This document shows, one piece after another, positions 24,222 through 64,000 of a stretch of 64,000 bases of DNA. The position numbers and the translations under genes are program-made. Origin of the DNA: an uncultured Holophagales bacterium (GTDB lineage: Bacteria > Acidobacteriota > Thermoanaerobaculia > Multivoradales > UBA5704); contig CAWJGT010000019.1 of the NCBI GenBank assembly GCA_963842525.1, forward strand, positions 192,001 to 256,000, in the 5' to 3' direction. Position 1 is the first letter of the stretch, and each line of letters starts with the position of its first letter. Under the pieces are notes generated by a model, which worked only from the letters and a program-made list of their open reading frames with translations, was not told where the DNA came from and searched no databases.

Positions 24222-27200
24222 ATGGTTGAGAAGTCCAGGATCCTGGCGGACCTGTCCGCCGACCAGCGGCATGCGTTGCTCGAGCGCCTCCGGGAGAAGA
24301 AGCTCGCGCAGCGCGGCCCGGGGATCCGGCCGCGGCCAGTCGGTCTGCACCCTCTGCCCCTGGCCTTCGCCCAGGAGCGCCTCTGGTTCCTCGACCAGCT
24401 CGAGAAGGGGTCCGCCGCCTACAACCTCCTGTTCGGCGTGCGCTTGACCGGCCGTCTCGACCGCCGCGCGCTGCGGCGGACGCTCGCCGAGCTGGTACGC
24501 CGGCACGAGTCGCTGCGCACCACCTTCGGCCAGCGGGAGGGCAGGCCCTTCCAGGCGGTCGCGCCGCCGGCCGCGCCGCCGCTGCCGTGGATCGACCTCA
24601 GCGGCGTGCCCGCGTCCGCGGGGGAGGCGGAGCTGCTGCGCGTCCTGCGCGACGAGGCGGCGTATCCCTACGACCTGGAGTGCGGCCCGCTGCTGCGCTG
24701 CAAGCTCCTGCGCTTCCGCCCGGACGACCACGCGCTCGCCGTGGCGATGCACCACATCATCTCCGACGGCTGGTCGATGGCGGTCTTCCTGCGCGAGATG
24801 TCGGACCTGTACACCGCCTTTGCCGCCGGCCGGCCGTCGCCGCTGCCCGAGCCGGAGATCCAGTACGCCGACTTCGCGGTCTGGCAGCGGGAGCACCTGA
24901 GCGGCGCGACTCTCGAGACCGAGCTCGCCTGGTGGCGGGAGAGGCTGGCTGGCCTGCCTGTCCTCGAGCTGCCCACCGACCGGCCGCGGCCGGCCCGGCA
25001 GAGCCAGCGCGGCGCCGAGGCCCGGCTGACCCTCGACGCTGCCGTCGCCGGCCGCGTCCACGAGCTGGGGCACCGCGAGGGGGCCACCCCCTTCATGGTC
25101 CTGCTCGCCGTCTGGAAGGCGCTGCTTTTCCGCTCTACAGGGCAGATCGACTTCGCGGTGGGCTCCCCGGTGGCCAACCGCGAGCACGCGGAGGTTGCGG
25201 GCCTGATCGGTTTCTTCGTCAATACCCTGGTGCTGCGCACCGACCTGGCGGGCGGTCCGGGGTTCCGCGAGCTGCTCGGCCGGGTCCGCAGGACGTCGAT
25301 CGCCGCCTACGACCATACGGCGCTGCCGTTCGAGAAGCTGGTCGAGCATCTGCAGCCCGAGCGCTCCGGGGGCAACCCGCTCTTCCAGGTGCTCTGCCAC
25401 ATGCAGAACCAACCCTGGCCGGAGCTGCGGATCGGCGACGTCCGGCTCGCGATCCTCGACCTCGGGACCCAGGTCGCGAAGCTCGACCTGAGCCTGGGCT
25501 GGAGAGAGGAGGACGGGCGGCTCGAAGGCCGGCTGGAGTACGCCACCGACCTCTACGAAACCGCGAGCGTCGAACGTATGCTGCACTGCTACGGGACCCT
25601 CCTCGACGGCGCGCTGGACGACCTGGAGCGGGACGTCACGGAGCTGCCGCTGCTCGACGAGGCCGAGCGGCAGCAGCTCCTCCGCGAGGCGACAGGGCCG
25701 GCGCATGCCCGGCATGCCGGGCAGGACCGGATCGAGGGCCGCTGCATCCACCACCGGATCGAGGAGCACGCGGCGCGGACCCCGGAGGCGCCGGCGGTCG
25801 AGGGCCTGACCTACCGGGAGCTCAACGAACGCGCCAACCGGCTGGCGTGGTGGCTGCGCGCCCAGGGGATCGGCCTCGAGGCGCGGGTCGGCGTGCTCTT
25901 CGAGCGCTCGCCGGAGATGGTGGTGGCGGCGCTCGGGGTGCTCAAGGCCGGGGCAGCCTATGTGCCGCTCGACCCTTCCTATCCGGCGGAGCGCCTCGCT
26001 TTCCTCGCCACCGATTCGCAGGCACGTCTGGGGTCGACGGACAGGCCGGTGATCGTGACGCGCGAGGGGCTGGCCGGTCTTCTGCCGGAAGACCTCGCGC
26101 GCCGGGCGCGGATCGTCCGCCTGGACGCCGATGCCGCCAACGCCGCAGATACCGCGGAGCTGGCCCGGCAGCCTCCCGGCAATCCGCCGCCCCGGGCCAC
26201 GCCGGGCAATCTGGCCTACGTCGTCTACACTTCGGGCTCGACCGGCCAACCCAAGGGCGCGGCGGTTCCGCATGCCGCCCTCTCCCGCCTGGTGGACTGG
26301 TACGCGCAGGCGTTCGGCGCGACGCCGGCCGACCGCGCGAGCTGGATCGCGAGCCCGGCGTTCGACCCCGCGGTGCGGGAGGTCTGGTCGTGCCTCGCCT
26401 GCGGCGCCTGGCTGCGCATCCCGGACGAAGGCGTGCGCTCCGAGCCCGCGCGGCTGGCGGCCTGGCTGGCGGACGAGGGGATCACCCTCACCTACATGCC
26501 GGCGCCGCTCGCCCAGGCGGCGCTGCCCGGCCCCTGGCCGGAGGACCTGCGGTTGCGGGTCTTCACCGTGGGCGGCGACCGCCTGGTCCGCCGCCCGCCG
26601 GCCGGGGCGCCGTTCCAGGTCTACAACCTCTATGGGCCGGCCGAGTGCACCGTGAACGCGACCTGCGGCCGGGTCGAGCCGCACGGGACGGACCTGCCGT
26701 CTCTGGGCGCTCCGATCGCCGGAGCGCGGGTTTACGTGGTGGATCCCTGGGGGGGCCTCACGCCGGCCGGCGTGCCCGGCGAGATCTGGATCGGCGGCTG
26801 GGGAGTCGGCCGCGGCTACCTGGACCGGCCGTCCTGGACGGCCGAACGCTTCGTGCCTGACGCGTTCGGTACTGCCGGAGACACCGCCGGGGAGCGGCTC
26901 TACCGCACCGGCGACCTGGGGCGGCGCCGGCCGGGCGGACCGCTGGAATTCCTCGGCCGCATCGACCATCAGGTGAAAGTCCGCGGCGTCCGGATCGAGC
27001 TGGGCGAGGTCGAGGCGGCCCTGCACGCGCACCCGGGGGTTGCCGCCTGCGCGGTGCTTGTGCGAGACACGTCCCTGGTCGCCTACCTGGTGCCGGCCGA
27101 TGGCGCCGGGCCCAACTCCGCCGATCTCCGCCGTCATCTTGCGAGGCGGCTGCCGGCGGCCATGGTGCCTGCGGCGTTCGTGGTGCTCGATGCCCTGCCG

Positions 27201-30200
27201 CTCAACCCCAACGGCAAGGTGGACCGCCGCGCCCTGGCGCGGCTGGAGCCGCCGGCCGGCGAGGCGCACGCCGCCGCGGGCGCGCACGTGCCGCCGCGCA
27301 CCGCCACCGAGGAGATCCTGGCCGCGGTCTGGGCGGACCTTCTGGGGGTCGAGCGCGTGGGCGCCCACGACGATTTCTTCGCCCTGGGCGGCCACTCCCT
27401 GCTCGGCATCCAGGTCCTGTCGCGCCTGCGCACCCTGTTCGGGGTCGAGCTGCCGGTGCGCGCCCTGTTCGAGGAGCCGGCGCTCGCCGGCTTTGCCGCC
27501 CGGATGGACGCGGTGTTGGCAGGGTTGCACGAGAGCGCCGTCCCCGCGGCAGCCCCTCTTGAGCGGGTGGCCCGGGAGGGACGGCTGCCGCTCTCCTTCG
27601 CCCAGGAGCGGCTCTGGTTCCTCGAGCGGCTCGAGCCGGGCACGGCCTTCTACAACGTCCCCTCCGCCACTCGCTTCCGTGGGCCCCTGGAGGTCGACGT
27701 CCTGCGCCGCGGCTTCGCGGAGCTGGTGTGGCGGCACGAGGCGCTGCGCACCACCTTCGACGAGGAGAACGGCCGGCCCTTCCAGGTCATCGCTCCCGCC
27801 GTTGCCGCCGAGATGCCGTTGATCGACCTGTCGGCTCTACCCGGCCCGCTGTTCGACGCCGAGCTGCTGCGCCAGGCCACCGCCGAGGCGCGGCGCCCGT
27901 TCGACCTGCGGCGCGGTCCGCTCGTCCGCACGTCCCTCTTCCGGCTGGCGCCCCAGGACCACGTCCTGGTGTCGACCCTGCACCACATCGTCTCCGACGG
28001 CTGGTCCATGACCGTCCTGATCCGTGAGATGGCGGCGCTCTACGAGGCCTTCTGCGACGGGCGCCCGTCCCCCCTGCCGGAGCTGCCTGTCCAGTACGCC
28101 GACTACGCCCTCTGGCAACGCGGCTGGCTCCAGGGTGCGGTGCTCGCGGCCGAGATCGAGTGGTGGCGCGCGCGCCTGGCCGGCGTGCCGGCGCTCCAGC
28201 TCCCCACCGACCGGCCGCGCCTGCCGGTCGAGACCTTCCGCGGCCGGCAGCGGCCCGCCGGGATCTCGGCCGAGATGACCGGCGCTCTCCACGAGCTGAG
28301 CCGGCGCGAGGGGGTCACGCTCTTCATGACGCTGCTCGCCGCCTTCCAGACGATGCTCCTGCGCTATAGCGGGCAGACCGACCTGGCGGTGGGCTCGCCG
28401 ATCGCCAACCGCAACCGCAGCGAGACCGAAGGGGTGATCGGCTTCTTCGTCAACACCCTGGTCCTGCGCACCGACCTGTCCTGCGATCCGACCTTCCGTA
28501 AGCTGCTGGCGCGAGTGCGCGAGGTGGCCCTTGGGGCCTACGCGCACGAGAACCTCCCCTTCGAGAAGATCGTCCTGGAGCTCCAGCCGGAGCGCGACAC
28601 GAGCCGCAACCCCCTTTTCCAGGTGATGTGCGTGCTGCAGAATCAGCCCTGGAAAGCGGTGAGGCTGCGGGACCTGGAAATCTCGGGGCTCAGCCTCGAC
28701 ACGGCGACGGCCAAGCTCGACCTGACCCTCTCCTGGAGCACGGCGGGGGACGCTCTCGGCGCTCTCCTGGAGCACAACACCGACCTGTTCGACGATGCCA
28801 CGGCGTGGCGGATGTACGCGTGCTGCGTGGCCGTCCTGCGCGCCGGCGTGGAGGACCCGGACTGCCGGCTCGGCGCCCTGCCCCTCCTCGGCGAGGCCGA
28901 GCGGCGCCAGCTCCTCGCCGAGGCGGCCGGACCGCCCTGTGCCTGGGACGGCCGGTGCGTCCACTACCGGATGGAAGAGCAGGCGGCGCGCTTCCCCGAG
29001 GCTCCGGCGGTGGACGGCCTGACCTACGGAGAGCTCAACGCGCGGGCCAACCGGCTGGCCTGGTGGCTGCGCGCGCAGGGGGCCGGTCCCGAGATGAGGG
29101 TGGCCGTGCTCCTGGAGCGTTCTCCGGCCATGGTGGTGGCCTGGCTGGGCGTGCTCAAGGCGGGCGCGGCGTACGTGCCGCTCGACCCCTTCTATCCGGC
29201 GGACCGCCTCGCCTGGTTCCTCGCCGACTCGCAGGCAGGGGTTGCACGGCCGCTGGTGGTGACCCGCGAGGGGCTGGCCGGGCTCCTGCCCGCCCTGCAG
29301 GAACTGCCGGAAGACACCGTGGGCCGGGCTTGTATCCTCCGCCTGGACGCCGACGCGGACGAGCTGACCCGGTACGGCCCCGGCAACCCTCCGGCCCTGG
29401 CGATGCCGGAAAACCTGGCCTACGTCATCTACACCTCCGGCTCGACCGGCCGGCCGAAGGGCGTGGCCGTCGCCCATTCGACCGTCTCGCGCATGGCCGA
29501 CTGGCACCGCGAGGCGTTCGGCGTCACCCCGGCCGATGTGGCAACCCAGGTCACCAGCCCGGCGTTCGATCCGGCGGTCTGGGAGATCTGGTCCTGCCTG
29601 TGCTGCGGCGCCTCGCTGCGCGTGCCGGACGACGACGTGCGCGCCGCCCCCGCGCGGCTGATCGCCTGGATGGCCGACCAGGGGATCACCTTCGGCTACA
29701 TGCCGACGCCGCTCGCCGAGGCGGCCTTCGCCGTCCAGCCCTGGCCGGCGCACCTGCGCCTGCGGGTCTTCGTGCTCGGCGGCGACCGCCTGCACCGGCG
29801 CCCCGCCGCGGACGTGCCGTTCGCCGTGTACAGCCTCTACGGCGTGACCGAAGGCACGGTGAATTCGGCCGGCGGGCGCGTCGCGCCGCATGGCAGGGAG
29901 CTGCCGTCCATCGGCCGTCCGATCGCGGGGGTGCGGATCCACCTGCTGGACTCGCGGGGGGAGCTGGTCCCTGCCGGCGTGCCCGGCGAGGTCTGGATCG
30001 GCGGCGGGCTCGCGCGCGGCTATCTCGGCCGGCCGGACTGGACCGCCGAGCGCTTCCTGCCGGACCCGTTCAGTGGAGAGCCCGGAGAGCGGCTCTACCG
30101 CACGGGCGACCTGGCGCGGCAGCGGCCGGGCGGGGACCTCGACTTCCTCGGCCGGATCGATCACCAGGTCAAGGTCCGCGGCCTGCGCATCGAGCCGGGG

Positions 30201-33200
30201 GAGGTCGAGGCCGCGCTGCTGGAGCATCCGGGGATCGGCGCCTGCGCGGTCCTCGCGCAGGGGACGCAAGGCCTGGTCGCCTATATGGTGCCGTCCGGGG
30301 AGGTCATTCCGACATCCGCCGAGCTCCGCAGCTTCCTTGCGGCGAAGCTGCCGTCCCCGGTGGTGCCTTCAGCGTTCGTGACGCTCGACGCCCTGCCGCT
30401 CAGCCCCGTCGGCAAGCTGGACCGCCGCGCCCTGGCCGCCCTGGCGCCGCCTGTCGAGGCCTCCGTCGGCGCGCACCTGCCGCCGCGCACCGCCACCGAG
30501 GAGATCGTCGCCGCGGTCTGGGCGGATCTCCTGGACGTCGAGCGCGTGGGCGTGGACGACAACTTCTTTGCGCTCGGCGGCCACTCCCTGCTCGGCATTC
30601 AGATGCTGTCGCGCGTGCGCACCCTGCTGCGGGTCGAGCTGCCGGTGCGCGCCCTGTTCGAGGAGCCGGCGCTCGCGGGCTTCGCTGCCCGCGTGGACTC
30701 GGTATTGGCGGCATCGGCGGCATCGGCGGCATCGCGCGAGGGCGCCGCCGCCCCACCGCCCCCCCTCCAGAGGATCGACCGGCACGGGGACCGGGAGGGC
30801 GGAGGGAGACTGCCGCTCTCCTTCGCCCAGGAGCGGCTCTGGTTCCTCGAGCAGCTCGAGCCGGGAACCGCGTTCTACAACATTCCCTCGGCCACCCGCT
30901 TCAACGGGCCTCTGCGGGTCGGCGTCCTGCGCCGCGGCTTCGCGGAGATCGTGCGCCGCCACGAGTCGCTGCGCACCACGTTCGGCGCGGCGCACGGCCA
31001 GCCCTTCCAGGTCATCGCACCCGACGTTGCCCTGCAGACGCCGGAGATGCCGATGATCGACCTGTCGGCGCTCGACGGCAGGGCACGTGACGCGGAGCTG
31101 CTGCGCCTGGCCACCGACGAGGTGCGGCGCCCGTTCGACCTGCAGCGCGGCCCGCTCGTGCGCGCTCCGCTCTTCCGGCTGGCGGCGTACGACCACGTCC
31201 TGGTGTCGACCCTGCACCACATCATCTCCGACGGCTGGTCGACGACCGTCCTGATCCGCGAGATGGCGGCGCTCTACGAGGCTTTCTCCGCGGGCCGTCC
31301 GTCGCCCCTGCCGGAGCTGCCCATCCAGTATGCCGACTACGCGGTCTGGCAGCGCAGCCACCTCCAGGGCGAGGCGCTCGCGGCCGAGGTTGCCTGGTGG
31401 CGCCGGCGCCTGGCCGGGCTGACGAGCCTCCAGCTCCCGGCCGACCGGCCGCGCCCGCCGGTCGAGACCTTCCGCGGCCGGCGGCGCCCCGCCGGGCTGT
31501 CGGGCGGGCTCACCGGCGCTCTCCACGAGCTGGGCCGCGGCGAGGGGGTCACGCTCTTCATGACTCTGCTCGCGGCCTTCCAGACGATGCTCCTGCGCTA
31601 CAGCGGGCAGACCGATCTGGCGGTGGGCTCGCCGATCGCCAACCGCAACCGCAGCGAGACCGAAGAGGTGATCGGCTTCTTCGCCAACACCCTGGTGCTG
31701 CGCACCGACCTGTCCGGAGATCCGACCTTCCGCGAGCTGCTGGCGCGGGTGCGGGAGGTGACCCTGGGGGCCTACGCGCACGAGAACCTGCCGTTCGAGA
31801 AGATCGTCCTGGAGCTCCAGCCGGAGCGCGACATGAGCCGCAATCCGCTGTTCCAGGTGATGTGCGTGCTGCAGAACCAGCCCTGGAAGGCGGCGCCGCT
31901 GCGCGACCTGGAGATCTCGGGGCTGAGCCTCGATACGGCGACGGCGAAGTTCGACCTGACCCTGTTCTGGCAGGAGACGGGGGGCGTGCTCGGCGCCCTC
32001 CTCGAGCACAACACCGACCTGTTCAACGATGCCACGGCGTGGCGGATGTACGAGCACTGCGTGGCCATCCTGCGCGCCGGCGCGGAAGACCCGGACCGCC
32101 GGGTCGGCGCCCTGCCGCTGCTCGCCGAGGCCGAGCGGCACCAGCTCCTGCGGGAGTGGAGCGAGCCCACCGGCTCAACCGAATGGAAGGGCCGCTGCGT
32201 ACATCATCAGGTGGAGGAGCAGGCTGCTCGCACGCCTGGAAGGGTGGCGGTGATCGACGGCGAGCGGTCGCTGACCTACGCCGGGCTCGACGCCCGGGCC
32301 AACCGCCTGGCGCACGGCCTGCGCCGGCGCGGGGTGGGGCCGGAGTCGCTGGTGGGCATCTGCGTCGAGCGTTCGCTGGAGATGCTGGTCGCCGCCCTGG
32401 CGGTGGCCAAGGCGGGCGGCGCGCTGGTGGCGCTCGATCCGGCCTATCCGCGCGAGCGGCTGGCCACCATCATCGACGACGCCGGCCTCGCCGTGCTGCT
32501 GACCCAGGAGGAGCTGCTCACCAGCTTCCCGGAGCACGAGCACATCGCACTCCTCTATGAGCGCGGGGCCGACCTGTTCCCGGAGGAGAGCGAGAGCACC
32601 CCGGAGCGCGGGGTCGATCTCGACAATCCGATCTATGCCATCTACACCTCGGGCTCGACGGGCCAGCCGAAAGGGATCGTGGTCACCCACCGGGCCTTCT
32701 CCAGCCTGATCGACTGGCAGCTCCGGGCGGCGGACCTGCGGCCGGGAGCGAAGACGGTGGCGCTCTCCACCTTCGGCTTCTGCGTCAGCTTCCAGGAGAT
32801 GTTCTCCTGCTGGTGCTCGGGCGGCACCCTGGTGGTGGCCGACGAGATGACGCGGCGGGATGTCGGCGGTCTGGGCGCCTTCCTGGAGGAGCACGGGATC
32901 GAGCGCCTGCACCTGCCGTTTGCCGCGCTCAAGCATCTGGCAGAGGCGGCGGACCGGGAGCGGCTGCCCGCTGGGCTGCGGGAGGTGATCACGGCGGGCG
33001 AGCAGCTCCAGGTCACGCCGGCGGTGCGGTCGCTCTTCGAGCGGCTGCCCGGGTGCGTCCTGTCGAACCAGTACGGGGCGTCGGAGACGCACGTCATCAG
33101 CGCCCTGACGCTCACCGGGGAGCCCGCGGCCTGGCCGGCCATCCCGCCGGTCGGGCGGCCGGTGGACCGGGTGCGGATCCACCTGCTCGCTCCAGGCCTC

Positions 33201-34043: not shown

Positions 34044-37000
34044 ACGAGCGAGCCAGGGTCCTGGAGGGTCTGTCCACCGACCAGCGCCATGCGCTGCTCG
34101 AGCGGCTGCGGGAGAAGAAGCTCGCGCAGCGCGGGCCGGGCATCCGGCCGCGGCCGGCCGGTCTGCGCACCTTGCCGCTGTCTTTCGCCCAGGAGCGCCT
34201 CTGGTTCCTCGACCAGCTCGAGAAGGGGTCCGCCACCTACAACCTCCTGTTCGGGGTGCGCCTGACCGGCCGCCTCGACCGCCGTGCCCTGCAGCGCACC
34301 CTGGTCGAGCTGGTGCGCCGCCACGAGTCCCTGCGCACCACCTTCGGCCAGCGGGAGGGCCGGGCCTTCCAGACCATCGCGCCCTCGGCGGCGCCGCCCC
34401 TTCCGTGGATCGACGTCGCCGGTCTGCCGGAGGCCGCGGGCGCGGCGGAGCTGCTGCGCATCCTGCGCGACGAGGCGCTGCTGCCCTTCGACCTGGAGCG
34501 CGGCCCGCTGCTGCGCTGCAAGCTCCTCCGCTTCAGCCCCGAGGACCATGCGCTCGCCGTGGCGATGCACCACATCGTCTCCGACGGCTGGTCGATGGCG
34601 GTCTTCCTGCGCGAGATGTCGGACCTGTATGCCGCCTTTGCCGCCGGCCGGCCTTCGCCGCTGCCGGAGCCGGGGCTCCAGTACGCCGACTTCGCCGTCT
34701 GGCAGCGCGAGCACCTGAGCGGTGCGGCCCTCGACGCCGAGATCGCCTGGTGGCGGCAGCGGCTGGACGGGCTGCCGGTTCTCGAGCTGCCGGTCGACCG
34801 GCCGCGGCCGGCGCGGCAGAGCCACCGCGGCGAGTCGGTGCGGCTGACCCTGGACCCCGCCGTGACCGCGCGCATCTACGCGCTCGGGCATCGCGAGGGG
34901 GCCACCCCGTTCATGATCCTGCTTGCCGTCTGGAAGGCGCTGCTCCTCCGCACCACGGGGCAGACCGACTTCGCGGTGGGCTCCCCGGTGGCCAACCGCG
35001 AGCACGCCGAGATCGCGAACCTGATCGGGTTTTTCGTCAACACGCTGGTGCTGCGCACCGACCTGTCGGGCGGCCCCGGCTTCCGCGCGCTGCTCGGCCG
35101 GGTACGGGCGACGTCGATCGCCGCCTACGACCATGCGGAGCTGCCGTTCGAGAAGCTTGTGGAGCATCTGCAGCCCGAGCGCTCCGGGGGGCGCAATCCG
35201 CTCGTCCAGGTGATCTGCGTGATGCAGAACCATTCCTGGCCGGAGCTGCGGATCGGCGACGTCCAGCTCAAGCTCCTGGAATTCGGGACCCAGATCGCGA
35301 AGTTCAACCTGAGCCTGGGCTGGAGCGAGGAGGACGGCCGGCTCGAGGGCGGGCTGGAGTACGCCACCGACCTCTACGAAGCCGCGACCATCGAGCGCAT
35401 GCTGGGCCACTACCGGATGCTTCTCGACGGCGTGCTCGACGACCTGGAGACGGATGTCACGGAGCTCCCGCTGTTCGCCGCCGCCGAACGGCGGCAGCTC
35501 CTCGGCGAAGCGAGCGGGCCGGCGCATGACCGGCATGCCGGGATCGACGGCCGCTGCATCCACCACCGGATCGAGGAGCAAGCGGCGCGGACGCCCGAGG
35601 CGCCCGCCGTCGAGGACCTGACCTACCGGGAGCTCAACGCGCGCGCCAACCGGCTGGCGTGGTGGCTGCGCGCCCACGGGGTCGGCCCCGAGGCGCGGGT
35701 CGCCGTGCTCTTCGAGCGCTCGCCCGAGATGGTGGTGGCCGCGCTGGGAGCGTTCAAGGCCGGGGCGGCCTATGTGCCGCTCGATCCCACCTACCCGGCG
35801 GAGCGCCTCGGCTTCCTCGCCACCGATTCGCAGGCAGGCGTGGACAGGCCGGTGATCGTGACCCGCGAGGATCTGGTCAGGCTGCTGCCGGAGGAGACGC
35901 AGCAACGGGCGCGGATCATCCGCCTGGACGCCGACGCAGAGGATCTGGCCCGCCAGGAGGCCGGCAATCCGCCGTCCTCCGTCACGCCCGAGAACCTCTG
36001 CTACATCATCTACACCTCGGGATCGACCGGCCGGCCCAAAGGCTCGGCGCTCCCGCATGCCACCCTCTCCCGCCTGGTGGACTGGCACCGCGAGGCGTTC
36101 GGCGTGACGCCGGCCGACCGTGCGAGCTGGATCGCGAGCCCGGCCTTCGACCCCGCGGTGTGGGAGGTCTGGTCGTGCCTCTGCTGTGGCGCCTGGCTGC
36201 GCATCCCGGACGAGCGCGTGCGCTCCGAGCCCGCGCGGCTGGCGGCCTGGCTCGCGGACGAGGGCATCACCTTCGCCTACATGCCGACGCCGCTCGCCGA
36301 GGCGGTGTTCCCCGGGCCCTGGCCGGAGGACCTGCGGCTGCGGGCGCTCACCCTCGGCGGCGACCGCCTGGTGCGCCGGCCTCCCGCCGAGGCGACGTTC
36401 GAGGTCTACAACCTCTACGGGCCGGCCGAGTGCACCGTGAACTCGACCTTCGGCCTGGTCGAGCCGCACGGGACGGACCTGCCCCATCTGGGCACCCCGG
36501 TCGCGGGGGTACGCGTCTACGTGGCCGATCCCTGGGGAAGCCTCGCTCCGGCCGGCATTCCCGGCGAGATCTGGGTCGGCGGCGCCGGGATCGGCCGTGG
36601 TTATCTCGACCGCCCGGTCTGGACGGCCGAGCGCTTCGTGCCCGACGGATTCGGTGATGGAATCGGAGAGAGGCTCTATCGCACCGGCGACCTGGGGCGG
36701 CGCCGGCCGGGCGGGCCCCTCGAATTCCTCGGCCGCATCGACCACCAGGTCAAGATCCGCGGCATCCGGGTGGAGCTGGGCGAGGTCGAGGCGATCCTGC
36801 AGGAGCATCCCGAGGTCGGCACCTGTGTGGTGATTGCACGGCAGGACCGGCCGGGGGACAAGGCCCTGGTGGCGTATCTGACGCGGGCCGAGGGAGTCGC
36901 AGAGGGACCGGATCCGGGCGAGCTCCGCCGCCATCTTGCGACGCGTCTGCCGGCGGCCATGGTGCCCTCTGCGTTCGTCGTGCTCGACGCCCTGCCGCTC

Positions 37001-53500: not shown

Positions 53501-56500
53501 TGCTCGACAGGCTGCCGGTGACCCCCAACGGTAAGATCGATCGCAAGGCCCTGCCCGCGCCCATGGCCGAGACTGCACCGGAGTCGGCCGAGGTCCTGCC
53601 GCAGAGCGAGCTCGAAGAGAGCATCGCCGCGGTCTGGCGCGAGGTCCTGGGCGTCGAGAAGGTCGGTGTGAGCGACAACTTCTTCGACCTGGGCGGGCAT
53701 TCGCTGCTCCTGGTGCGCCTCCACGCGCGGCTCCAGGAGGTCCTGGGGCGCGAGGTCGCCCTGATGGATCTCTTTGCCCACCCCAACGTCCGCGCCCAGG
53801 CCGCGCGTTTCGGCCGCCCTGTGGAGGCACCTCCGCGGCCGGAGGCGCTCGTGCGCCGCCGGATGTCCGCTGCGGGCGCGAGCGGGAAGGTGGCCGTTGT
53901 GGGCATGGCCGGCCGGTTCCCCGGGGCCAAGGACCTAGACCGCTTCTGGCGTAACCTCTGCGACGGCGTCGAGGCGATCTCCTTCTTCTCTGATGAAGAG
54001 CTGATGGCCGGCGGCGCCGATCCGTCGCTGCTCGGCAACCCCAAGTACGTCAAGGCGCGGGGCGTGCTGGCGGACGAGGACCTCTTCGACGCCTCCTTCT
54101 TCGACATCCCGCCGCGGCAGGCCGAGGTGATGGACCCGCAGCTCCGGGTCTTCCTCGAATGCTCCTGGGAAGCCCTGGAGAGCGCCGGCTACGACCCGTC
54201 GCGCTACCCTGGCGCCATCGGCGTCTTCGGCGGCGTCACGATCTCCACCTACCTGCTGAGCAATCTCCTTTCGAACCCGGAGCTGCTCGCGGAGGTGGGC
54301 GTCTACCAGGCGTCGATCGGCACCGACCGCGACTTCCTGACCACCCAGGTCTCCTACAAGCTGGGCCTGCGTGGCCCGAGCCTGGACGTGCAGACCGCCT
54401 GCTCGACCTCGCTCGTGGCGGCCCACCTCGCTTGGCGGCTGCTGCTCGCCGGCGAGTGCGACATGGCGCTGGCGGGCGGCGTCTCGGTCAAGGTGCCTCA
54501 AGTCTCCGGTTACTTCTATCAGGAGGGGGGGCTCGACTCCTCGGACGGCCACTGCCGGACCTTCGACGCCAGGGCCGACGGCTCGGTCTACGGCGGCGGC
54601 GTCGGCCTGGTGGTGCTCAAGCGCCTGGAGGACGCGCTCGCCGACGGCGACACGATCCATGCGGTGATCCTGGGCTCGGCCATCAACAACGACGGCGCGG
54701 CCAAGGTGGGCTATACGGCGCCGAGCATCGAGGCGCAGGCCGAGGTCATCGCCACGGCCCAGGCGGTCGCCGGGGTGGCGCCGGAGTCGATCGGCTATAT
54801 CGAGTGCCACGGTACGGGCACGGCGCTGGGTGATCCAATCGAGGTGGCGGCCCTGACCCGGGCCTTTGGGCCGATCGAGCGCAAGGGCTTCTGCCCGATC
54901 GGCTCGGTGAAGACCAACATCGGCCACCTGGGAGCGGCGGCGGGCGTTGCCGGCCTGATCAAGGCGGTGCTCGCCGTGGAGCACGGGAAGATCCCGCCAA
55001 ACCTCCACTTCACGACGCCGAACCCCAAAATCGATTTTGCGGCCAGCCCGTTCCATGTCAACGTGCGCCTCGCCGATTGGCCGCCCGCGGGGAACAACGG
55101 GGACAATGGCCTGCGGCGGGCCGGCGTCAGCTCCTTCGGCCTCGGCGGCACCAACGCGCACATGGTCCTGGAAGAGCCGCCCGCAGCCGAGCCGTCCGGG
55201 CCGTCGCGCCCCTGGCAGCTCCTCCTCCTCTCGGCCCGTTCCGAGGCGGCGCTCGAAGCGGCGACCGACAACCTCGCCGGCTGGCTGGCGGAGCATCCGG
55301 AGGCGCCGCTCGCCGACGTGGCCTGGACCCTCCAGGCCGGCCGGCGGGCCTTCGCGGTCCGGCGCGCCGTGGTCTGCCGCGATCCTGAGGAGGCTCGGCA
55401 GGCCCTTGCGGAGCGCGATCCGCGGCGGCTCTTGACCGTAGTCCAGGAGCCCGGGAGCCGGCCGGTGGCCTTCCTGCTCGGGGGCGTCGGCGATCACTAC
55501 CCGGGCCTGGCGAAGAGCCTCTACGAAGGCGAGCCGGTTTTCCGGGCGGAGCTCGACCGTTGCGCCGAAGGGCTGCGGCCCGACCTCGGTGGCGACCTGC
55601 GCGAGGTGCTCTTCGAAGGTGAGCGCCGGGGCGACGAAGGTGGCCTCGACCTGCGAAAGATGATGGGCCGCGGCGGCGCGCCGGCTGGACGGCTCCAGCG
55701 TACCTTCTGGGCGCAGCCGGCGGTCTTCACGGTCGAATACGCTCTGGCTCGCCTCTGGATGTCCTGGGGCGTGGTGCCCGAGGCGCTCCTCGGCTACAGC
55801 CTGGGCGAGTACGTGGCGGCCTGCTTGGCGGGGGTCTTCTCCCTGGAGGACGCGCTGCGCCTGGTGGCCGAGCGGGCGCGCCTCCTGGAGGAGCTGCCGG
55901 CTGGGGCCATGCTCGCCGTGCCCTTGCCCGAGGAGGAGATGCGGGTGCGGCTCTCCGGCCAGTTGGACCTTGCTGCCGTCAACGGGCCGCAGCTCACCGT
56001 GGTATCGGGCCTGCCGGAAGAGATCGCGGCTCTGGCCGAGCGCCTGGCCGCGGAGGGGATCCCCTCGCGGCCGGTGCCTACGACTCACGCCTTCCACTCG
56101 CGGCAGATGCGCCCCGCGGCCGACGCGCTCACCGCCCTGGCGCGGCAGATGCGCCTGGCGCCGCCGCGCATCCCGCTCCTGTCGAACGTCACCGGCACCT
56201 GGATGCGGCCGGACGAGGCCATCGATCCCGCCCGCTGGGCGCGCCACCTCTGCGGCACCGTGCGCTTCGCGGACGGCGTCGCGGCCCTCTGGCAGAGCCC
56301 ATCGCGGGTCCTCCTCGAGATCGGACCGGGCAACGGCCTGTCGGCGCTGGCGCTCCAGCACCCGGCGGTGTCTTCCGGCGTAGGAGACCGGGTCGCGGTG
56401 CCGTCGCTCCCCCATGCCCACGACCGCCAGCCGGACCAGGCCTTCCTGCTCGGCGCCCTGGCGCGGCTCTGGCTGGCTGGCGTCGAGGTCGACTGGAGCG

Positions 56501-59500
56501 GCTTCGCGGCCGGCGAGCGCCGGCGGCGCCTGACGCTCCCCACCTATCCTTTCGAGCGCCGCCGGTACTGGGTGGAGGCGCGGCGCGTGGGCGCTCCAGC
56601 CGTACAGAGTGCCGTCGCCGAGCCGGCCGCGCCTGTCGCTCCCACACTGCACGCCCGGCCGGCTCTGCGGCGCGCCCACGTGGCGCCGCGCAATGAGATT
56701 GAGGCGCGGATCGCCGGCTTCATCGAGCGCCTCCTGGGGATCTCAGGTATCGGCGTCCATGACAGTTTCTTCGAGCTGGGCGGCCATTCGTTGCTCGGCA
56801 CCCGGTTGCTCTCCCGCTTGCGCGACGAGCTGGGCGTCGAGCTGCCCATCGAGGACCTCTTCGCGGCGCCCACCGCGGCCGAGCTGGCGGAGAAGGTGGC
56901 GGCACGCTCCTCGGCAGTGCCCACCGTAGCTGCGCCAGGCGCCGTCATCCCGGTATCGCGGAAAGGCGAGCTGCCGCTCTCCTGGGCCCAGGAGCGGATC
57001 TGGTTCCTCGACCTGCTCCAGCCTGGCAGCCCGGCGCACAACATCCCGGCGGCGATCCGCCTAAGCGGTCCGCTCGACCCAGGGGCTCTCGCGGAGGCTC
57101 TGAGGAGGGTGGTGAACCGGCACGAGACGCTGCGCACCACCTTCCCCGAGGTGGACGGCCGGCCCGTCCTGCGCATCGCGCTGCCGAGCGCTTGGCCGTT
57201 GCCCATGATGGATCTGACGGCACTGCCGGCGGACCTCCGCGACGGCGAGGCTCGCCGGCTCGCCCTGGAGGAGCCGCGGCGGCCTTTCGATCTGGCGGCG
57301 GGGCCGCTCCTGCGCACGGTTCTGCTCCGGCTGGACAGCCGGGATCATCTCCTCCTGGCTAACCTGCACCACATCGTCGCCGACGGCTGGTCGCTTGGCG
57401 TCTTCACCGGAGAGATGAGCGCGCTCTATCGCGCCCTGGCTGCGGGAGATGGCTCGCCGCTGCCGGAGCTGCCGGTCCAGTACGTCGACTGGGCCGCCTG
57501 GCAGCGCCGCTGGCTCGACGGTTCCGCGCTCGCCGCGCACCTCGCCTGGTGGAGCGAGCGGCTACGCGCTTTGCCCGTGCTGGAGCTGCCGTCCGACCGG
57601 CCGCGTCCGCCGGTCGAGACTTTCCATGGCGGGCGCAGGTTCTTTGCCTTCCCGGCGGGGCTTCAGACCGCGCTGCGCGATCTATGCCGGGAGCGGGGGG
57701 CGACGCTGTACATGACCCTTCTCGCCGCCTTCGCAACCCTGCTTGGCCGCTGGTCCGGGCAGGAGGACGTCGCGGTGGGCACTCCGATCGCGGGTCGCAC
57801 TCGGGCGGAGGTCGAGGGCTTGATCGGCGTGTTCATCAACACGCTGGTGATGCGTGCCGACCTGTCGGGCGATCCGGCCTTCGAAGAGCTGCTGGCGCGG
57901 GCGCGCGAGACGGCCCTCGGCGCCTACGCGCACCAGGAGATGCCGTTCGAAAGGCTGGTCGAGGAGCTGCGGCCCGAGCGCAGCCTCGGCCATTCGCCGC
58001 TCTTCCAGGTTCTTTTCATTTTGCAGAACACCCCGGCCGACGGGACCGAGGTGGCGGACCTCTCGATCCAGCCGATGGTGGAGGTCTACCACGGCGTCTC
58101 GCGGTTCAACCTGACGCTCTCCTGCACGGAGACGCCGGGCGGGCTGGCGGGCTACCTCGAGTACAAGACGGACCTCGTAGACGCCGCGACGGCGGAGCGC
58201 TGGGTGGGGCACCTCGAGACCCTGCTCGCGGGCGTGGCCGCGGACCCGCGCCGCCGCCTGTCCGAGCTGCCGGTCCTGCCGGAGGCCGAGCGCCGCCAGG
58301 TCCTCCACGCCTGGAACGACACCGCTTTGGAGGTTTCGGAGGCGCCCGTCCACCAGCTCTTCGAAGCCCAGGCGGCGCGCACGCCCACCGCGGTGGCGGC
58401 GGTGTTCGAGGGCGAGAGCCTGACCTACGAGGAGCTGAGCGCCCGGGCCGACCGTCTGGCGCACCGCCTGCGCGTCCTGGGGGTTGGCCCCGAGGTGCTG
58501 GTGGGAGTCGCCCTGGAGCGCTCGCTCGACCTGCCGGTGGCCGTGCTCGGCGTGCTCAAGGCGGGCGGCGCCTACCTGCCGCTCGACCCGGGCTATCCAG
58601 CGGAGCGCCTGGCCTTCATGCTGCGCGACAGCCGCGTCCCGGTGGTCCTCACCCAGAGCCGCCTCGCCGCCGCCCTGCCGGACCACCAGGCCGCCGTCGT
58701 CTTCGTGGATGTCCTTGGTGACCCTGCTGTCCCTGCCGTCCTTGAGCACCCCACTGCCCCCGAGAGCCTCGCTTATGTGATCTACACCTCGGGCTCGACC
58801 GGCCGGCCCAAGGGAGTGCAGGTTTCGCATCGGGCATTGACCAACTTCCTGGTCTCGATGGCCCGCGAGCCCGGCCTGGCGCCGGACGACGTGCTGCTCG
58901 CAGTGACCTCTCTGTCGTTCGACATCGCGGCGCTCGAGCTCTACCTGCCCCTGCTCGTCGGAGCTCGGATCGAGATTGCCTCCGGCCCGGTGGCGGGCGA
59001 CGGCGTGCGCCTCCTCGGGCTGCTGCGGAGCTCCGGGGTCACTGCCGCCCAGGCGACCCCCTCGACCTGGCGGATGCTGCTCGATGCCGGATGGGAGGAC
59101 ACACCCCGGCTACGGCTGGCGCTGGCCGGGGGCGAGGCGCTCACCGGCGACCTGGCCGCGCAGCTCGGCCGCCGCGCGGACGCGCTGTGGAACGTCTACG
59201 GCCCCACCGAAACTGCCGTCTGGTCGACGGTGCTGCGGGTCGAAGGCGCAACCAGCCCTTCGGTCCCGATCGGCCGGCCGATCGCCAACACCCATATCCG
59301 CGTCCTCGACGGCTGGGACGCGCCGGCGCCGGTTGGTGTGCCGGGCGAGCTCGCGATCGGCGGCACGGGCGTGGCGCGCGGCTATCTCGACCGGCCGGAG
59401 CTGACCGCCGAGCGGTTCGTCCCCGATCCGTTCGGCGATCGCCGCGCCGCGCCCGGAGCCCGCCTCTACCGCACCGGCGACCTGGCGCGCTGGCGGCCGG

Positions 59501-62500
59501 ACGGCGTCCTCGAGTTCCTCGGCCGGATCGACCACCAGGTCAAGATCCGCGGCTACCGCATCGAGCTGGGGGAGATCGAGGCCGCTCTCTCTCTGCACCC
59601 GTCGGTGGCGCAGGCCGCGGTGGTGGCGCGCGACGACTGGGGCGATCGGCGGCTGGTGGCCTACGTGGCTCCCTTCGGCGCGCGCGAGCCGGTTGCCGCG
59701 GAGCTGCGCGAATTCCTGCGCGCGCGCCTGCCCGAATACATGGAGCCGGCGGCCTTCGTCGTGCTGCCCGCCCTGCCGCTCACCCCCAACCGGAAGGTGG
59801 ACCGGAAGGCGCTGCCCGCGCCCGAGGCCGCGGCGGCGGCGGCGGGCGCGTTCGTCGGGCCCAGGAGCCCTCTCGAGGAGGTTCTGGTCGAGGTCTGGGC
59901 CGAGGTGCTCCGTCTCGAGCGGGTGGGGATCGACGACGACTTCTTCGCTCTGGGCGGCCACTCCCTGCTCGCCACGCAGGTGGCCTCCCGCATCCAGCGG
60001 GCGCTCGGAGTGGCGCCGCCGGTGCGCTGGCTGTTCGAGCGGCCGACGATCCGCGGGCTGGCCGAGAGGGTGGCCGCGGCGCGCCACGAGGCCGGGCCCC
60101 AGGCGCCGCCCATCCTGCCGGTGCCGCGAGAGGGCGGCCTGCCTCTTTCCTTCGCCCAGCAGCGGCTCTGGTTCCTGGACCGGATGGAGCCCGGGAGCCC
60201 GGCCTACAACCTCAACAGCGCCATCCGCATCCAGGGCCGTCTGGATGCCGCGGCCCTCGTGCGAGCCTTCCAGGAGCTGGTGCGGCGGCACGAGACGCTG
60301 CGCGCGTCCTTCGTCCTGCGCGGCCGCGGCCCGGTCCAGGCGCTCGCGCCGGCGCTCGCCCTGCCGATCTCCGTGGTGGACCTCGGTGCGCTTCCGGAAG
60401 AGGCGCGCGAGGCCGAGGTCCGGGCGCTCGCCGCGGCCGAGAGCCTGCGTTCCTTCGACCTGGGCGTGGCTCCGCTCCTGCGCGTCACGCTGCTGCGCCT
60501 CGGCGGCGCGGACCACGCGGTGTTGCTCACGATGCACCACATCGTCTCCGACGCCTGGTCCATGGGGGTCCTGGTCACCGATCTGGCGCGGATCTACGGC
60601 GCCTTCGCCCACGGCGCCGGCTCGCCCCTGCCTGAGCTGCCGGTCCAGTACGCCGACTTCGCCGTCTGGCAGCGGGAGCATTTGCAGGGCGAGGCCCTGG
60701 AGAGCCAGCTCCGCTACTGGTCTGGCACCCTCGCCGGGGCCCCGGTGCTCGAGCTGCCCACCGACCGGCCACGGCCGGCCCTCCAGAGCTACCGGGGAGC
60801 TGACTTCGCGGCCGGCTTCTCCCCCTCCCTGAGCCGGGAGCTGGCCGACCTCAGCCGGCGCCACGGGGCGACGCCGTTCATGACGCTGCTGGCGGGCTTC
60901 GATCTCCTGCTCTCGCGGTACGCGGGGCAGGAGGACGTCCTCGTGGGCTCGACCATCGCCAACCGCACGCGGCCGGAGCTGGAGGGCCTGATCGGGCTTT
61001 TCGTCAATACCCTGGCCCTGCGGCTCGATCTTGCGGGCGATCCCACGTTCCTCGACGTGCTCTCCCGGGTGCGGGAGCTGACGCTGGGGGCCTATGCCCA
61101 CCAGGACCTGCCGTTCGAGAAGCTGGTGGCCGAGGTCCAGCCGGAACGCGACCTCAGCCGCTCCCCCCTCTTCCAGGTCCTCTTCCAGCTCCAGAATGCC
61201 CCGGCGGGGAGCATCGAGCTGCCGGAGCTCACTCTGACGCCGGTGGCGTCGCCCGGGCAGACCGCCAAGTTCGACCTGGTGGTCAACGTGGTTGCGGCGC
61301 CGCAGGGGCTGTGGTGGCAGTGGAAGCACAACAGCGACCTGTTCGATCGCGCCACCATCGTCCGCATGTCGCGCCACCTCGAGGCGCTGCTGGAGGCGGT
61401 GGCGGCCGGGCCGGGGCGGCTGGTCTCGGAGATCCCGCTGCTCTCCGAGGGCGAGGCGCATCAGCTCCTGGCGGAGTGGGGCGCGGCGCGGCCGGCTTCC
61501 CCGGTCTTCTGCCTGCACGAGCGGTTCGCGGCGCGCGTGGCCGAGGACCCGCAGGGACCGGCGGTGACCTTCGAGGGCGAGACGCTGAGCTACAGCGAGC
61601 TCGACCGCCGGGCCAACCGGCTGGCGCACAGGCTGCGTGCCTGGGGGATCGGCCCCGGCGCTCTGGTGGGTCTGTGCCTGGAGCGTTCGGCCGAGCTGAC
61701 CATGGCCGTTCTGGGCGTGCTCAAGGCCGGGGCGGCCTACGTGCCCATCGATCCGGACTACCCGGGTGAGCGCATCGCCTTCCTGCTCGAGGACAGCCGG
61801 GTGCCGGTGCTGCTGACCCAGAGCTCCCTGGTGGCGAGCCTGCCGGAGGCCTCCTGCCGGAAGGTCTGCCTGGATGGGGAGGACCTCGGAGAGCCGGGGG
61901 CCGGGAGCAAGGAGGGACCGGTCTCGCTCTCCTCGCCCGGGGACCCGGCCTACGTCATCTACACCTCGGGCTCTACCGGCCGGCCCAAGGGCGTGGTGGT
62001 GACCCACGCCAACGTGGCGCGCCTGTTCACGGCCACCGATCCCTGGTTCGGCTTCGGACGGCAGGACGTCTGGACCCTGTTCCACTCCTATGCCTTCGAC
62101 TTCTCGGTCTGGGAGATCTGGGGCGCGCTGCTTCATGGCGGCCGTCTCGTGGTGGTGCCGTATTGGGTCAGCCGCTCGCCGGAGGCCTTCTACGACCTGC
62201 TGCGGCGTGAGCGGGTGACGGTGCTCAACCAGACCCCCTCGGCCTTCCGCCAGCTCCTGTGGGCCGAGGAGGCGGCGCTGCAGGGCCAGGAGCCCGATCT
62301 GGCCCTGCGCTATGTGATCTTCGGCGGTGAGGCGCTGGAGCTTGCCGGCCTGGCCCCCTGGTTCGCCCGCCACGGCGACCGGCGGCCCGAGCTGGTCAAC
62401 ATGTACGGCATCACGGAGACGACCGTCCACGTCACCTGCCGGCCGTTGCGCCGCCAGGATGTCGAAGCGGCCCGCGGCAGCGTGATCGGCCGGGCGATCT

Positions 62501-64000
62501 CGGACCTGGCCCTGCACGTCCTCGATCGGGGTGCCCGTCCGGCGCCCCTCGGTGTGGCGGGGGAGATCTGCGTGGGCGGGGCGGGCCTGGCCCAGGGGTA
62601 CCTCGGCCGGCCCGAGCTGACGGCGGAGCGGTTCGTCCCCGATCCGTTCGGTGGTCTCCGGGGCGAGCCCGGGGCACGGCTCTACCGCTCGGGCGACCTG
62701 GCGCGCCGCCTGCCGGACGGGGAGCTGGAGTACCTGGGGCGCATCGACCACCAGGTCAAGATCCGCGGCTTCCGCATCGAGCTGGGCGAGATCGAGACGG
62801 CCTTGTGCCGGCACCCGGCCGTGCGCGAGGCCGTGGTCCTGGCGCGCGAGGCCGGCGGCGAGAGGCAGCTCGTGGCCTACGTGGTGGCCGATCCGCAGGC
62901 CGAGCCGGGCTTGGGCGAGCTGCGCTCGTTCGCATCCGCCCAGCTTCCCGACTACATGCTCCCGTCCGCCCTCGTAACGCTGCCGTCGCTGCCGCTGACC
63001 GCCCACGGCAAGGTGGACCGCCGGGCTCTGCCCGCGCCCGACCGGGTGCGGCCGGACCGCAAAGGCGAGCGCATGGCGCCGCGCAACGAGATGGAGGCCT
63101 TTCTGGCCGGTCTGTTCCGCGAGTCTCTGGATCTGGAGGAGGTCGGCGTCGACGACGACTTCTTCGAGCTGGGCGGGAACTCGATCTCGGGCGCGATCCT
63201 GATCAACCGCCTCCAGGAGGCGATCTCCGAGATCGTCCAGGTCGTCGTCATCTTCGACGCGCCGACCGTGGCACGGCTCGGCGAATACCTGGTACGGGAG
63301 CATCCTCGGGCGGTGGCGCGCTTCTGGGGCGAAGAGCTGTTGATCGGGACAGGCGGCCCGCAGGCCCGGCGGGTCGACGAGGCTTCGCTCGCGGACCTGC
63401 GCTCGCGCATCCAGCCGCTGGCGCCCCTCCCGCAGACATCGATCGCGAGCAAGAACCCACCGGCCGTCTTCGTGCTGGCGCCGCCGCGCTCGGGCACGAC
63501 GCTGCTGCGGGTCATGCTCGGCGGGCACCCGAAGCTGTTCGCTCCGCCGGAGTTGGAGCTGCTGTCGTTCAACACCCTGGCCGAGCGGCGGGCCGCCTTC
63601 TCCGGCCGCGACAGCTTCTGGCTCGAGGGCGCGGTGCGGGCGGTCATGGAGATCCGCGGCTGCACGGCCGAGGAGGCCAACGCCCTGCTCGACGAGCTGG
63701 AGAGCCGGGGACTGACCACCGCGGAGCTCTATGGACAGATGCAGGGCTGGCTCGGCGAGCGGAGGTTGGTGGACAAGACGCCGTCCTATGCGCTGGACCC
63801 GGCGGTGCTGCGGCGGGCCGAGGAGGTCTTCGACCGGCCGCTGTACATCCACCTGAGCCGGCATCCGCTGGGCATGATCCGCTCCTTCGAGGAGGCCAAG
63901 CTCGACCAGATTTTCTTCCGCCAGGAGCACCCGTACGCGCGGCGCGAGCTGGCGGAGATGATCTGGACGCTGAGCCACGACAACATCGTCGGCTTCCTGC
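50506..64000 (+). CDS. Hybrid NRPS-PKS 4 (runs off the window): C-A(Lys2-like)-T-KS-AT-ACP-C-A(Gly)-T-C-A(Thr)-T-sulfotransferase
   Basis: Absent from the ORF track (no stop). ATG 50506 overlaps the NRPS 3 stop and the frame held at every point I checked to 64000. Motifs: HHIVSDG, HDPLQRD (about 52630), [18 protein letters not shown] (about 54390-54930), [30 protein letters not shown] (Gly code DILQLGVVWK), [18 protein letters not shown] (Thr code DFWNIGMVHK), [13 protein letters not shown] (63481). Confidence 0.95.

Follow-up and report, generated by a model that had tools for sequence, protein, structure and literature searches.

The DNA examined here (the window) is a 64,000-nucleotide stretch of the genome of an uncultured Holophagales bacterium and corresponds to contig C19:192001-256000 of an assembly with 9.95 Mb on 34 contigs and 96% completeness. 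From position 24222 it carries an assembly line of nonribosomal peptide synthetase (NRPS) and polyketide synthase (PKS) modules. This line runs on to window-equivalent position 108408 (C19:216222-300408) and thus spans about 84 kb; coordinates past 64000 are counted on from window position 1. The whole line comprises eight genes, which we call A to H, and 24 modules, among them three minimal PKS modules and two threonine modules followed by a sulfotransferase (ST). Its chief interest lies in this in-line ST with a dedicated carrier type and in an adenylation domain of the proline clade that lacks the usual aspartate, in a cluster far larger than the window showed. Domains were mapped with Pfam, with phmmer using the window's own domains as seeds, and with hidden Markov models (HMMs) built from the cluster.

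Within the window the line appears as five open reading frames (ORFs) on the + strand (24222-34043, 34040-40657, 40654-43491, 43245-50513 and 50506-63999, the last open at its 3' end). An earlier note on the window had described four coupled genes. The coupling is real, with start/stop overlaps at the A/B, B/C and C/D boundaries, but the assembly shows five ORFs, the third gene being broken twice in module 6. Gene A (24222..34043) encodes modules 1-3, each with condensation (C), adenylation (A) and carrier (T) domains, and a C-terminal docking tail. Gene B (34040..40657) adds modules 4-5 and gene C (40654..50513) modules 6-8, all again C-A-T, with gene C split over three frames in the assembly. 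The first 4498 aa of gene D (50506..64000) hold modules 9-12, and the gene runs on to ~81300 through module 17. Seed searches placed 11 C domains, 11 A domains, 12 carrier domains and one ketosynthase-acyltransferase (KS-AT) pair between 24354 and 63288; together with Pfam they confirm the 11 NRPS modules (C-A-T) and one PKS module (KS-AT-T) of the earlier note. Because the Pfam families of these ORFs are limited to Condensation, AMP-binding, AMP-binding_C, PP-binding, KS, AT and Sulfotransfer_3, there is no epimerization (E), methyltransferase (MT), heterocyclization (Cy) or thioesterase (TE) domain in the window part of the line (24222-64000). That had been claimed, and it holds for the window. 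It does not extend to the line, in which E, MT and Cy domains are all present outside the window.

Module 10 is a minimal PKS module (53887..56895, + strand; KS 53887-55011, AT 55471-56487, acyl carrier protein (ACP) 56710-56895) in which Pfam finds no ketoreductase (KR), dehydratase (DH) or enoylreductase (ER). It is followed by module 11 (C-A-T, 56971..60069), with a Gly-type binding pocket, and module 12 (C-A-T, 60139..63288), with a Thr-type pocket and a carrier (63100-63288) that bears the motif GGNS, not GGHS. An ST of the CurM/OLS type begins straight after this carrier (63436..64000, cut by the window edge; Pfam match from aa 4319 of the last window ORF), just where the earlier note had placed it. 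The full domain extends to ~64314, and the C domain of module 13 starts at 64381. T12, the ST and C13 lie in one open frame, and the piece that contains the ST (63289-64380) is a full-length match to PF13469.

The cluster was correctly suspected of being incomplete on the right: the frame of the last window ORF stays open past 64000, and domain matches go on to 108408. Gene D continues with modules 13 (pocket DAWTVAAVC, Phe-type) and 14 (DASTVAAVC, Tyr-type), a second PKS module (module 15, KS-AT-T, 70666-73768), module 16 (C-A-T-ST, pocket DFWNIGMVH, with the ST at 77003-78085 and a C domain next) and module 17 (DLFNNALTY, Ala-type), and stops at ~81300 after a 40-aa tail. Gene E opens with the KS of module 18 (KS-AT-T, 81300-84341), followed by module 19 (DALDLGSVT). 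Gene F carries modules 20 and 21, both with DALDLGSVT, and ends in an E domain with HHLVGDG and EGHGRE. Gene G encodes modules 22 (DVWHMSLVD) and 23 (DVWHFSLVD), both Ser-type, with an MT inserted in A23; it opens with a DCL-like C domain only 29-34% identical to the other C domains of the line. Gene H (103402-108408; C19:295402-300408), which starts at a GTG overlapping the gene G stop, combines a Cy domain, a degenerate A domain, a carrier and a transporter of the major facilitator superfamily (MFS). The D/E, F/G and G/H boundaries were read from translations.

Three KS-AT-carrier modules thus stand in frame among NRPS modules, as befits a hybrid line. None of the three contains a KR, DH or ER, and Pfam scans of the whole line show no KR, TE or loading module. 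All three AT domains carry GYSLG and HAFH, the latter presumably a malonyl marker; in AT10 (55471-56487), as in AT18 outside the window, GYSLG occupies the active site in place of the usual GHSxG, with HAFH present. The modular NRPS character is equally clear, with HHxxxD[GA] in all 20 C domains checked, A-domain core motifs visible in the alignment, and GG[HNDT]S in each of the 22 T domains listed and also in T17 and T24. The 11 C domains of the window, to which the earlier note had ascribed LCL-type motifs, share 44-85% identity with one another, all with HHxxxD[GA], and 23-34% with the two DCL-like C domains downstream in the line. At the second of these, in gene G, we observe an unusual T22-C23 pair (98645-100261): T22 carries GGDS, which we take to be the motif usual ahead of E domains, and C23 is DCL-like (23-27% identical to the LCL group) with no E domain before it. 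C23, ahead of the Ser-MT module, could be either a dual E/C domain or a C domain with a modifying role.

Binding pockets were read at the nine variable Stachelhaus positions from a MAFFT alignment of 21 A domains of the line, with the FD of motif A4, x-x-T-P-S, GGE and NxYGPTE as landmarks. This landmark rule was validated by its output: several modules gave textbook codes, and the beta-Ala code VDWVVSLAD was later recovered from unrelated proteins. The substrate names attached to the pockets come from general code tables. Modules 1, 2, 4, 6 and 7 have the pockets DPRYTGLVN, DPWYVGLVN, DPWYTGLVN, DPWYFGCVI and DAWFLGCVV. Modules 3, 5 and 8, here called P*, share CVQHIAQVI, without Asp235. DPRHLVLRA in module 9, DILQLGVVW (Gly-type) in module 11 and DFWNIGMVH (Thr-type) in module 12 complete the window, so that the aligned pockets match the colinear string that the earlier note had proposed: X1-X2-P*-X4-P*-X6-Leu?-P*-acidic?-ketide-Gly-Thr. 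For the A domain of module 9 (52030..53136, + strand), the model TIGR03443 of Lys2, the alpha-aminoadipate reductase, scores 517 bits and a generic A-domain model 360 bits; this resemblance to Lys2 lends some support to the guess of an acidic residue. In both giant lines of this genome, the present one and another on contig C34, an A domain of this DPRH, Lys2-like type has a PKS module directly after it.

The ST is a close homologue of the CurM and OLS STs. In searches against PDB sequences, the ST piece matches the CurM ST (4gbm, E 2.3e-69) and the OLS ST (4gox, E 8.9e-60); tyrosylprotein sulfotransferases come next, at 4e-6. The stretches PRSG(T/S)TLLR, PPEL and RHP align with CurM. Both STs of the line are full-length PF13469 domains and are 87% identical to each other. 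PF13469 has 16 matches in the genome, seven of them in open frames of 1887-8098 aa. Relatives were collected by a scan of one genome per species, with close relatives at 55-70% identity. The 53 related ST loci come from Acidobacteriota metagenome-assembled genomes (MAGs; 52, from Thermoanaerobaculia, Holophagales and Blastocatellia) and one Rokubacteria MAG. The order C-A-T-ST-C recurs in them, up to three times running.

Three regularities emerge from this comparison. The residue activated immediately upstream is nearly always hydroxylated: the 58 intact A domains directly before T-ST in the related loci comprise 32 Thr-, 13 Tyr- and 10 Ser-type domains and three others, and in the own genome four of five such pockets are of a hydroxy type. 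The STs also group by residue. A quick IQ-TREE phylogeny covering 70 ST domains gathers the Tyr-linked STs in a single clade (12 Tyr and one unassigned, support 99); 28 Thr-linked STs fall in a large clade with support 94 that includes both copies of this line, and the Ser-linked STs lie mostly in two clades. The residue labels require 19 changes on this tree against a shuffled mean of 34.6, and none of 200 shuffles was as low; as labels are shared among kin, this demonstrates clustering and not independent events. Finally, the carrier is distinctive. The motif GGNS occurs in 66 of the 74 carriers directly before an ST and in 4 of the 140 other carriers of the same loci, 117 of which have GGHS. 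T12 and T16 both carry GGNS. Together, these rules for residue, tree and carrier argue for an ST that works in cis: its target would be the hydroxyl borne by the residue on its own carrier, with which it has co-adapted. The pocket DIWEITADD, which has no assigned residue, precedes T-ST at two independent places, one on contig C3 of the own genome (minus strand, 566723) and one at related locus L049, a hint that the ST family accepts one more hydroxylated substrate.

The best explanation of these patterns, and one we hold to be probable, is a colinear 24-module line with in-line O-sulfation of carrier-bound hydroxy residues. In this scheme, the ST would take threonine or peptidyl-threonine as the thioester on its own GGNS carrier and move sulfate from 3'-phosphoadenosine 5'-phosphosulfate (PAPS) to the beta-hydroxyl, and the next C domain would then pass the sulfated chain on. 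The residue of the Lys2-like module 9 would be extended by the minimal KS-AT-ACP of module 10 and followed by Gly and the first Thr-ST. After module 12 the predicted order is a Phe-type residue, a Tyr-type residue, a KS-AT-ACP extension, the second Thr-ST, an Ala-type residue and a further KS-AT-ACP extension. Three DALDLGSVT modules, the last with E, and two Ser-type modules, the second with MT, would complete the chain. The product may be a peptide-polyketide of about 23 units, of which three would be beta-keto units and two O-sulfo-threonines; export would be through the MFS domain fused in gene H. PAPS supply is possible given an APS (adenosine 5'-phosphosulfate) kinase domain in a 656-aa ORF on contig C24. 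The earlier note had looked to the region past 64000 for starter, release, precursor and PAPS-supply genes. None was found beside the cluster, and the APS kinase is on another contig.

Several observations weigh against this explanation. Sulfation itself, its timing (on the aminoacyl or the peptidyl thioester) and the fate of the sulfate are read from protein sequences. The ST is selective among hydroxy-residue modules: 34 of the 38 Thr-, Ser- or Tyr-type modules in the own genome have no ST. An early impression that hydroxy modules lacking an ST are rare (~8 of 108 non-ST modules near STs) was dropped on the strength of that count. T13 (67291-67479) is also GGNS with no ST after it; module 13 may go back to a Thr-ST module whose ST was lost. 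The comparative counts overstate their statistical weight, because the related loci were chosen by ST presence and kin are not independent, and the substrate names of the pockets come from general code tables rather than tool output, with no assignment for P*, the DPWY-type pockets or DALDLGSVT. The explanation accounts neither for the start of the line, where no loading module and no recognisable starter C domain were found, nor for release, where no TE was found. Five frame breaks fall in genes C, D and F, and the line is dead if they are real. The most direct challenge is chemical. CurM-type STs install leaving groups on carrier-bound beta-hydroxyacyl chains, and by analogy elimination is plausible for Thr and Ser.

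This challenge can be cast as an alternative in which CurM logic operates within an NRPS, so that sulfation activates the hydroxyl and the sulfate is lost, giving dehydrobutyrine by alpha,beta-elimination or a ring by intramolecular displacement. We consider such an outcome unlikely. In its favour, the closest solved kin, the CurM and OLS STs, install leaving groups; a threonyl thioester is itself a beta-hydroxyacyl thioester; and the STs of this line belong to the Thr clade, which includes terminal T-ST-TE forms. Module 16, moreover, stands directly after a KS-AT-ACP module that would leave a beta-keto group, and the beta-keto-amide methylene from module 15 could close a five-membered lactam. 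Set against these points is the breadth of the family: in 13 of 58 cases the module served is of the Tyr type, whose sulfate could not undergo elimination. Between the end of the ST (~64314) and the start of C13 (64381) lies no additional domain for an elimination reaction, and the C domains after the STs are not a distinct type: C13 and C17 are 78-80% identical to C14, which follows the Phe-type module without ST, as are the three among themselves. The TE that follows a terminal ST in three related lines resembles ordinary NRPS TEs, and the CurM TE is absent among its 40 PDB matches. These lines (L018, ST 10001-11077, tail to ~11890; L021, ST to 11071, tail to ~11884; L043, ST to 11128, tail to ~11959) end A(Thr)-T-ST-TE, in other words with the CurM domain order on an amino-acid module. 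The Tyr clade, as phenolic Tyr sulfate cannot be eliminated, and the ordinary TE lead us to favour retention: the sulfate is probably kept, and its elimination or displacement is a minority expectation that stays in play for Thr and Ser because of the CurM ancestry of the ST.

The earlier note had instead presented the ST as an unusual C-terminal segment and the product as ending in a sulfated or eliminated group. An off-loading role of this kind, as in the ACP-ST-TE of CurM, was a natural suggestion when the ST was the last element within the window, and the T-ST-TE forms of L018, L021 and L043 demonstrate that such ends exist. We now regard it as exceedingly improbable here. The same frame runs from the ST into C13 (64381), twelve further modules follow, and the second ST (77003-78085) likewise precedes a C domain. 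Given the sequence past 64000, the line does not end at the ST, barring a chimeric join in contig C19 at this point.

The second unusual element is the P* module. Its A domains (module 3, 32214..33269; module 5, 38789-39859; module 8, 48681-49739; + strand) have intact core motifs in the alignment and a pocket of the proline clade with Cys for Asp235. They belong to a nine-member clade with at least 66% identity, in which every pocket reads CVQHIAQV[IV] except for one variant with Tyr278 and one with Met299. Three members are those of this line, one lies in the second giant line (contig C34) and five in other acidobacterial proteins; Cys235 is present in all nine, and position 278 is His or Tyr. 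The nearest kin, at 48-51% identity, have the proline pockets DVQF[IV]A[HQ]VV and come from myxobacteria, cyanobacteria and others. P* shares with proline A domains the pocket positions 236, 239, 299, 301 and 330, but differs from them at the site where Asp235 binds the amino or imino group. The retention of the pocket throughout the clade argues against an alignment artefact. Thus, P* is a real, conserved acidobacterial branch of the proline clade that lacks Asp235, much as the earlier note had described it.

What P* activates is a matter for cautious suggestion. In keto-acid A domains, according to one account, Asp235 is replaced and the rest of the pocket kept (PMC10949194). Applied to P*, this makes a proline-shaped non-amino acid the natural guess, and the depsipeptide that the earlier note had offered as one option would hinge on what P* takes. 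Against a keto acid, the line has no KR, and the C domains before P* are 80-85% identical to those before ordinary modules. At least 12 of 60 other genomes contain A domains of the P* type, which there stand singly and in other module contexts; the threefold periodic use is peculiar to this line.

That periodicity, which the earlier note had recognised, holds for the first eight modules: (X X P*)(X P*)(X X P*). The A domains of modules 1, 2, 4, 6 and 7 are paralogues with 69-80% identity, and no A domain of the module 1 type occurs outside this cluster at E <= 1e-140 among 61 genomes. The C domains fall into two groups, C1, C4 and C6 (67-82% identical) and C2, C3, C5, C7 and C8 (80-85% identical). 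The heads of genes A and B are 81% identical over 42 aa, their tails 79% over 33 aa, and the tails of genes A, B and C are near copies; we found no heads of the A/B type or tails of the A/B/C type elsewhere in the genome. These similarities strongly suggest that the first eight modules arose by recent tandem duplication.

The same similarities bear on how the line begins. With C4, an elongation domain, C1 shares 82% identity, and with C6 67%; in this comparison among the C domains of the line, that argues against a dedicated starter type. An upstream partner for the head of gene A was sought by its docking tail, and this tail occurs on genes A, B and C only. We favour the view that the gene A head and its elongation-type C1 are a relic of duplication, with C1 idle or served by an acyl donor. 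They could also hint at iterative use of the subunits, in which chains ending in P* return to gene A or skip a subunit, to give a variable number of (X)n-P* repeats before gene D. In favour of this, the near-copy heads and tails are confined to these genes in the genome, C1 has an intact HHIISDG and resembles C4, which takes a P*-ending donor, and neither a loading module nor another partner for the head of gene A was found. Yet recent duplication alone accounts for the likeness, which is one of sequence only; with the genome 96% complete, a partner could be unassembled; and initiation would still be unexplained. We judge such non-colinear use of genes A, B and C to be rather improbable. A bolder combination would join STs that install leaving groups (for on-line dehydro-amino acids or rings, such as a gamma-lactam at module 16), P* modules that periodically insert a hydroxy, keto or imino acid, and interchangeable docking ends that yield variable repeats. 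It seems to us possible though unlikely. If true, its leaving-group part would be a dehydro or ring-forming route undescribed for NRPSs, present across dozens of acidobacterial lines.

At the other end, the line closes with gene H. The N-terminal domain has DCLLVDG, the DxxxxD motif of Cy domains, and matches the Cy domains of EpoB (5t7z, 2e-57), BmdB (1.7e-49) and Irp2 (Irp2/HMWP2, 5.8e-46) among PDB sequences. The A domain has lost motifs A3, A4, A5 and A7, and it is therefore doubtful that gene H works as a normal Cy module. The C-terminal part is an MFS transporter of the EntS/Mef type. A full-length paralogue (contig C34:354786-359400; 37-41% identity, its A domain still more eroded) ends the second giant line. 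Both lines lack a TE and close with a Cy, degenerate A, T and MFS protein, and the recurrence points to a conserved terminal device. Among 60 relatives, the MFS stands alone in most cases, in open frames of ~450-550 aa. Scans of the line and of the flanking ORFs revealed no TE in or beside the cluster.

In the assembly the line is interrupted by five breaks of 1-2 nt over 84 kb, two in gene C, two in gene D and one in gene F. Within module 6, the reading frame shifts from 0 for C6 to 1 for A6, and then to 2 for the last part of A6 and T6. The first break (42115..42124, + strand, f0 to f1) lies in a CT run between C6 and A6, and the second (43369..43374, + strand, f1 to f2) in a G6 run within A6, after the YRTGD motif. 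The others fall at ~72700 inside AT15, at ~80990 before T17 and at ~94950 inside the E domain of gene F. If these were real mutations, the cluster would be decaying or dead, with no full-length product, and the N-terminal C domain of gene A without a partner and the degenerate terminal A domain could be seen in the same light. We think this improbable. Intact domain motifs continue in the shifted frame on either side of every break, all breaks are in short runs, and the degenerate A domain is kept in the paralogous terminal protein, which argues for a retained role. Related loci from long-read-style MAGs (L013, L055 and L058) have the same fragmented domain matches. Across the genome, a rough scan of 26 NRPS/PKS regions (1.21 Mb in total) found 88 frame-split C or A domains, spread over 21 of these regions; its criterion scored this cluster zero against the five breaks found by eye, and the two rates are not comparable. 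The occurrence of split domains in so many regions indicates a property of the assembly rather than of the cluster, and the five breaks are probably assembly indels.

The line can be set beside three known ways of sulfating carrier-bound chains. With the ACP-ST-TE of CurM/OLS it shares a homologous ST directly after a carrier, where it would meet a beta-hydroxyl on a thioester. The carrier in those systems belongs to a KR-containing PKS module, whereas here it belongs to an NRPS Thr module in a line without KR; there a dedicated hydrolysing and decarboxylating TE comes after the ST, whereas here both STs lead into C domains, and the ST kin also serve Tyr and Ser modules. The ST belongs to the CurM/OLS family by sequence while missing two off-loading features, the TE after it and the KR-made substrate before it. 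Sulfazecin biosynthesis reportedly relies on a free-standing enzyme, in the SulN/SulM system, that N-sulfonates the carrier-bound peptide before release, with a TE forming the beta-lactam. The likeness is that an NRPS-bound intermediate is sulfonated before release; the present ST is fused in line and its putative target is a hydroxyl.

The cyanopeptolin synthetase OciA of Planktothrix contains a sulfotransferase and a glyceric-acid loading domain within an NRPS (PMC2533009). There too, an ST is built into an NRPS protein and modifies a hydroxy unit bound to a carrier. It differs in standing with an N-terminal glyceric-acid loading domain and acting on a starter side chain, whereas the STs here lie inside the line, are repeated and accompany Thr modules. 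Pfam scans of the complete line show no glyceric-acid loading domain. Among acidobacteria, the accessible text on Candidatus Angelobacter and Candidatus Eelbacter (subgroups 1 and 4) reports hundreds of kilobases of NRPS/PKS genes (300-400 kb), clusters of more than 100 kb and ORFs up to 24 kb, and contains no word beginning 'sulfo' (PMC9723581). The likeness is that of uncultured soil acidobacteria with giant orphan NRPS/PKS clusters. The host here differs in belonging to a genus of the Thermoanaerobaculia type, and our rough scan puts its NRPS/PKS regions at ~1.2 Mb, far beyond the 300-400 kb of that account.

A search for in-line NRPS STs after amino-acid modules, for acidobacterial sulfated peptides and for expression of acidobacterial NRPSs yielded only the cyanopeptolin, CurM/OLS and sulfazecin precedents in the literature covered, outside which lay most subscription journals. 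Neither an ST in this position nor this cluster is described there. No cluster with the same module order appeared in that literature or in 60 related genomes, in keeping with the earlier note's view of an orphan line.

Sulfated nonribosomal peptides are rare, and to our knowledge almost no natural products have been characterised from Acidobacteriota. If our explanation is correct, an ST in elongation modules with its own carrier subtype would be a further in-line tailoring domain of NRPSs beside E, MT and oxidase (Ox) domains. It would also supply a mining rule, by which a GGNS carrier followed by an ST predicts O-sulfo-Thr, -Ser or -Tyr. This rule would cover dozens of lines in uncultured soil Acidobacteriota and predict polyanionic peptide-polyketides that standard prediction tools would draw unsulfated. 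The line further poses two biochemical puzzles: a proline-clade A domain with Asp235 changed to Cys, and a terminal Cy, dead A and T unit fused to an exporter in a line without thioesterase.

The surroundings of the cluster contain no biosynthetic genes. Downstream ORFs encode NYN, HD and Wzt-type ABC proteins and others, or have no Pfam match; upstream ORFs encode an NAD-glutamate dehydrogenase, DUF5916/CBM9 and VWA proteins, a transglutaminase-like protein, an ABC transporter and others. The glutamate dehydrogenase (15915-20795) is an intact 1626-aa NAD-specific enzyme of the large bacterial type (PF05088, 854 bits) with no evident tie to the cluster. The genome as a whole is rich in such systems. 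Our HMMs matched 402 C, 389 A, 342 T, 50 KS and 10 ST domains, and the 26 NRPS/PKS regions of at least 9 kb together make up 1.21 Mb, or ~12% of the 9.95 Mb. Examples are found on contigs C34 (C34:237374-357887), C9 (C9:1528283-1624846) and C19 (C19:448878-513230). The first of these, the second giant line, shares with the line described here a block that runs from P* to a DPRH-type A domain, KS-AT-T, Gly and Ser/Thr-ST.

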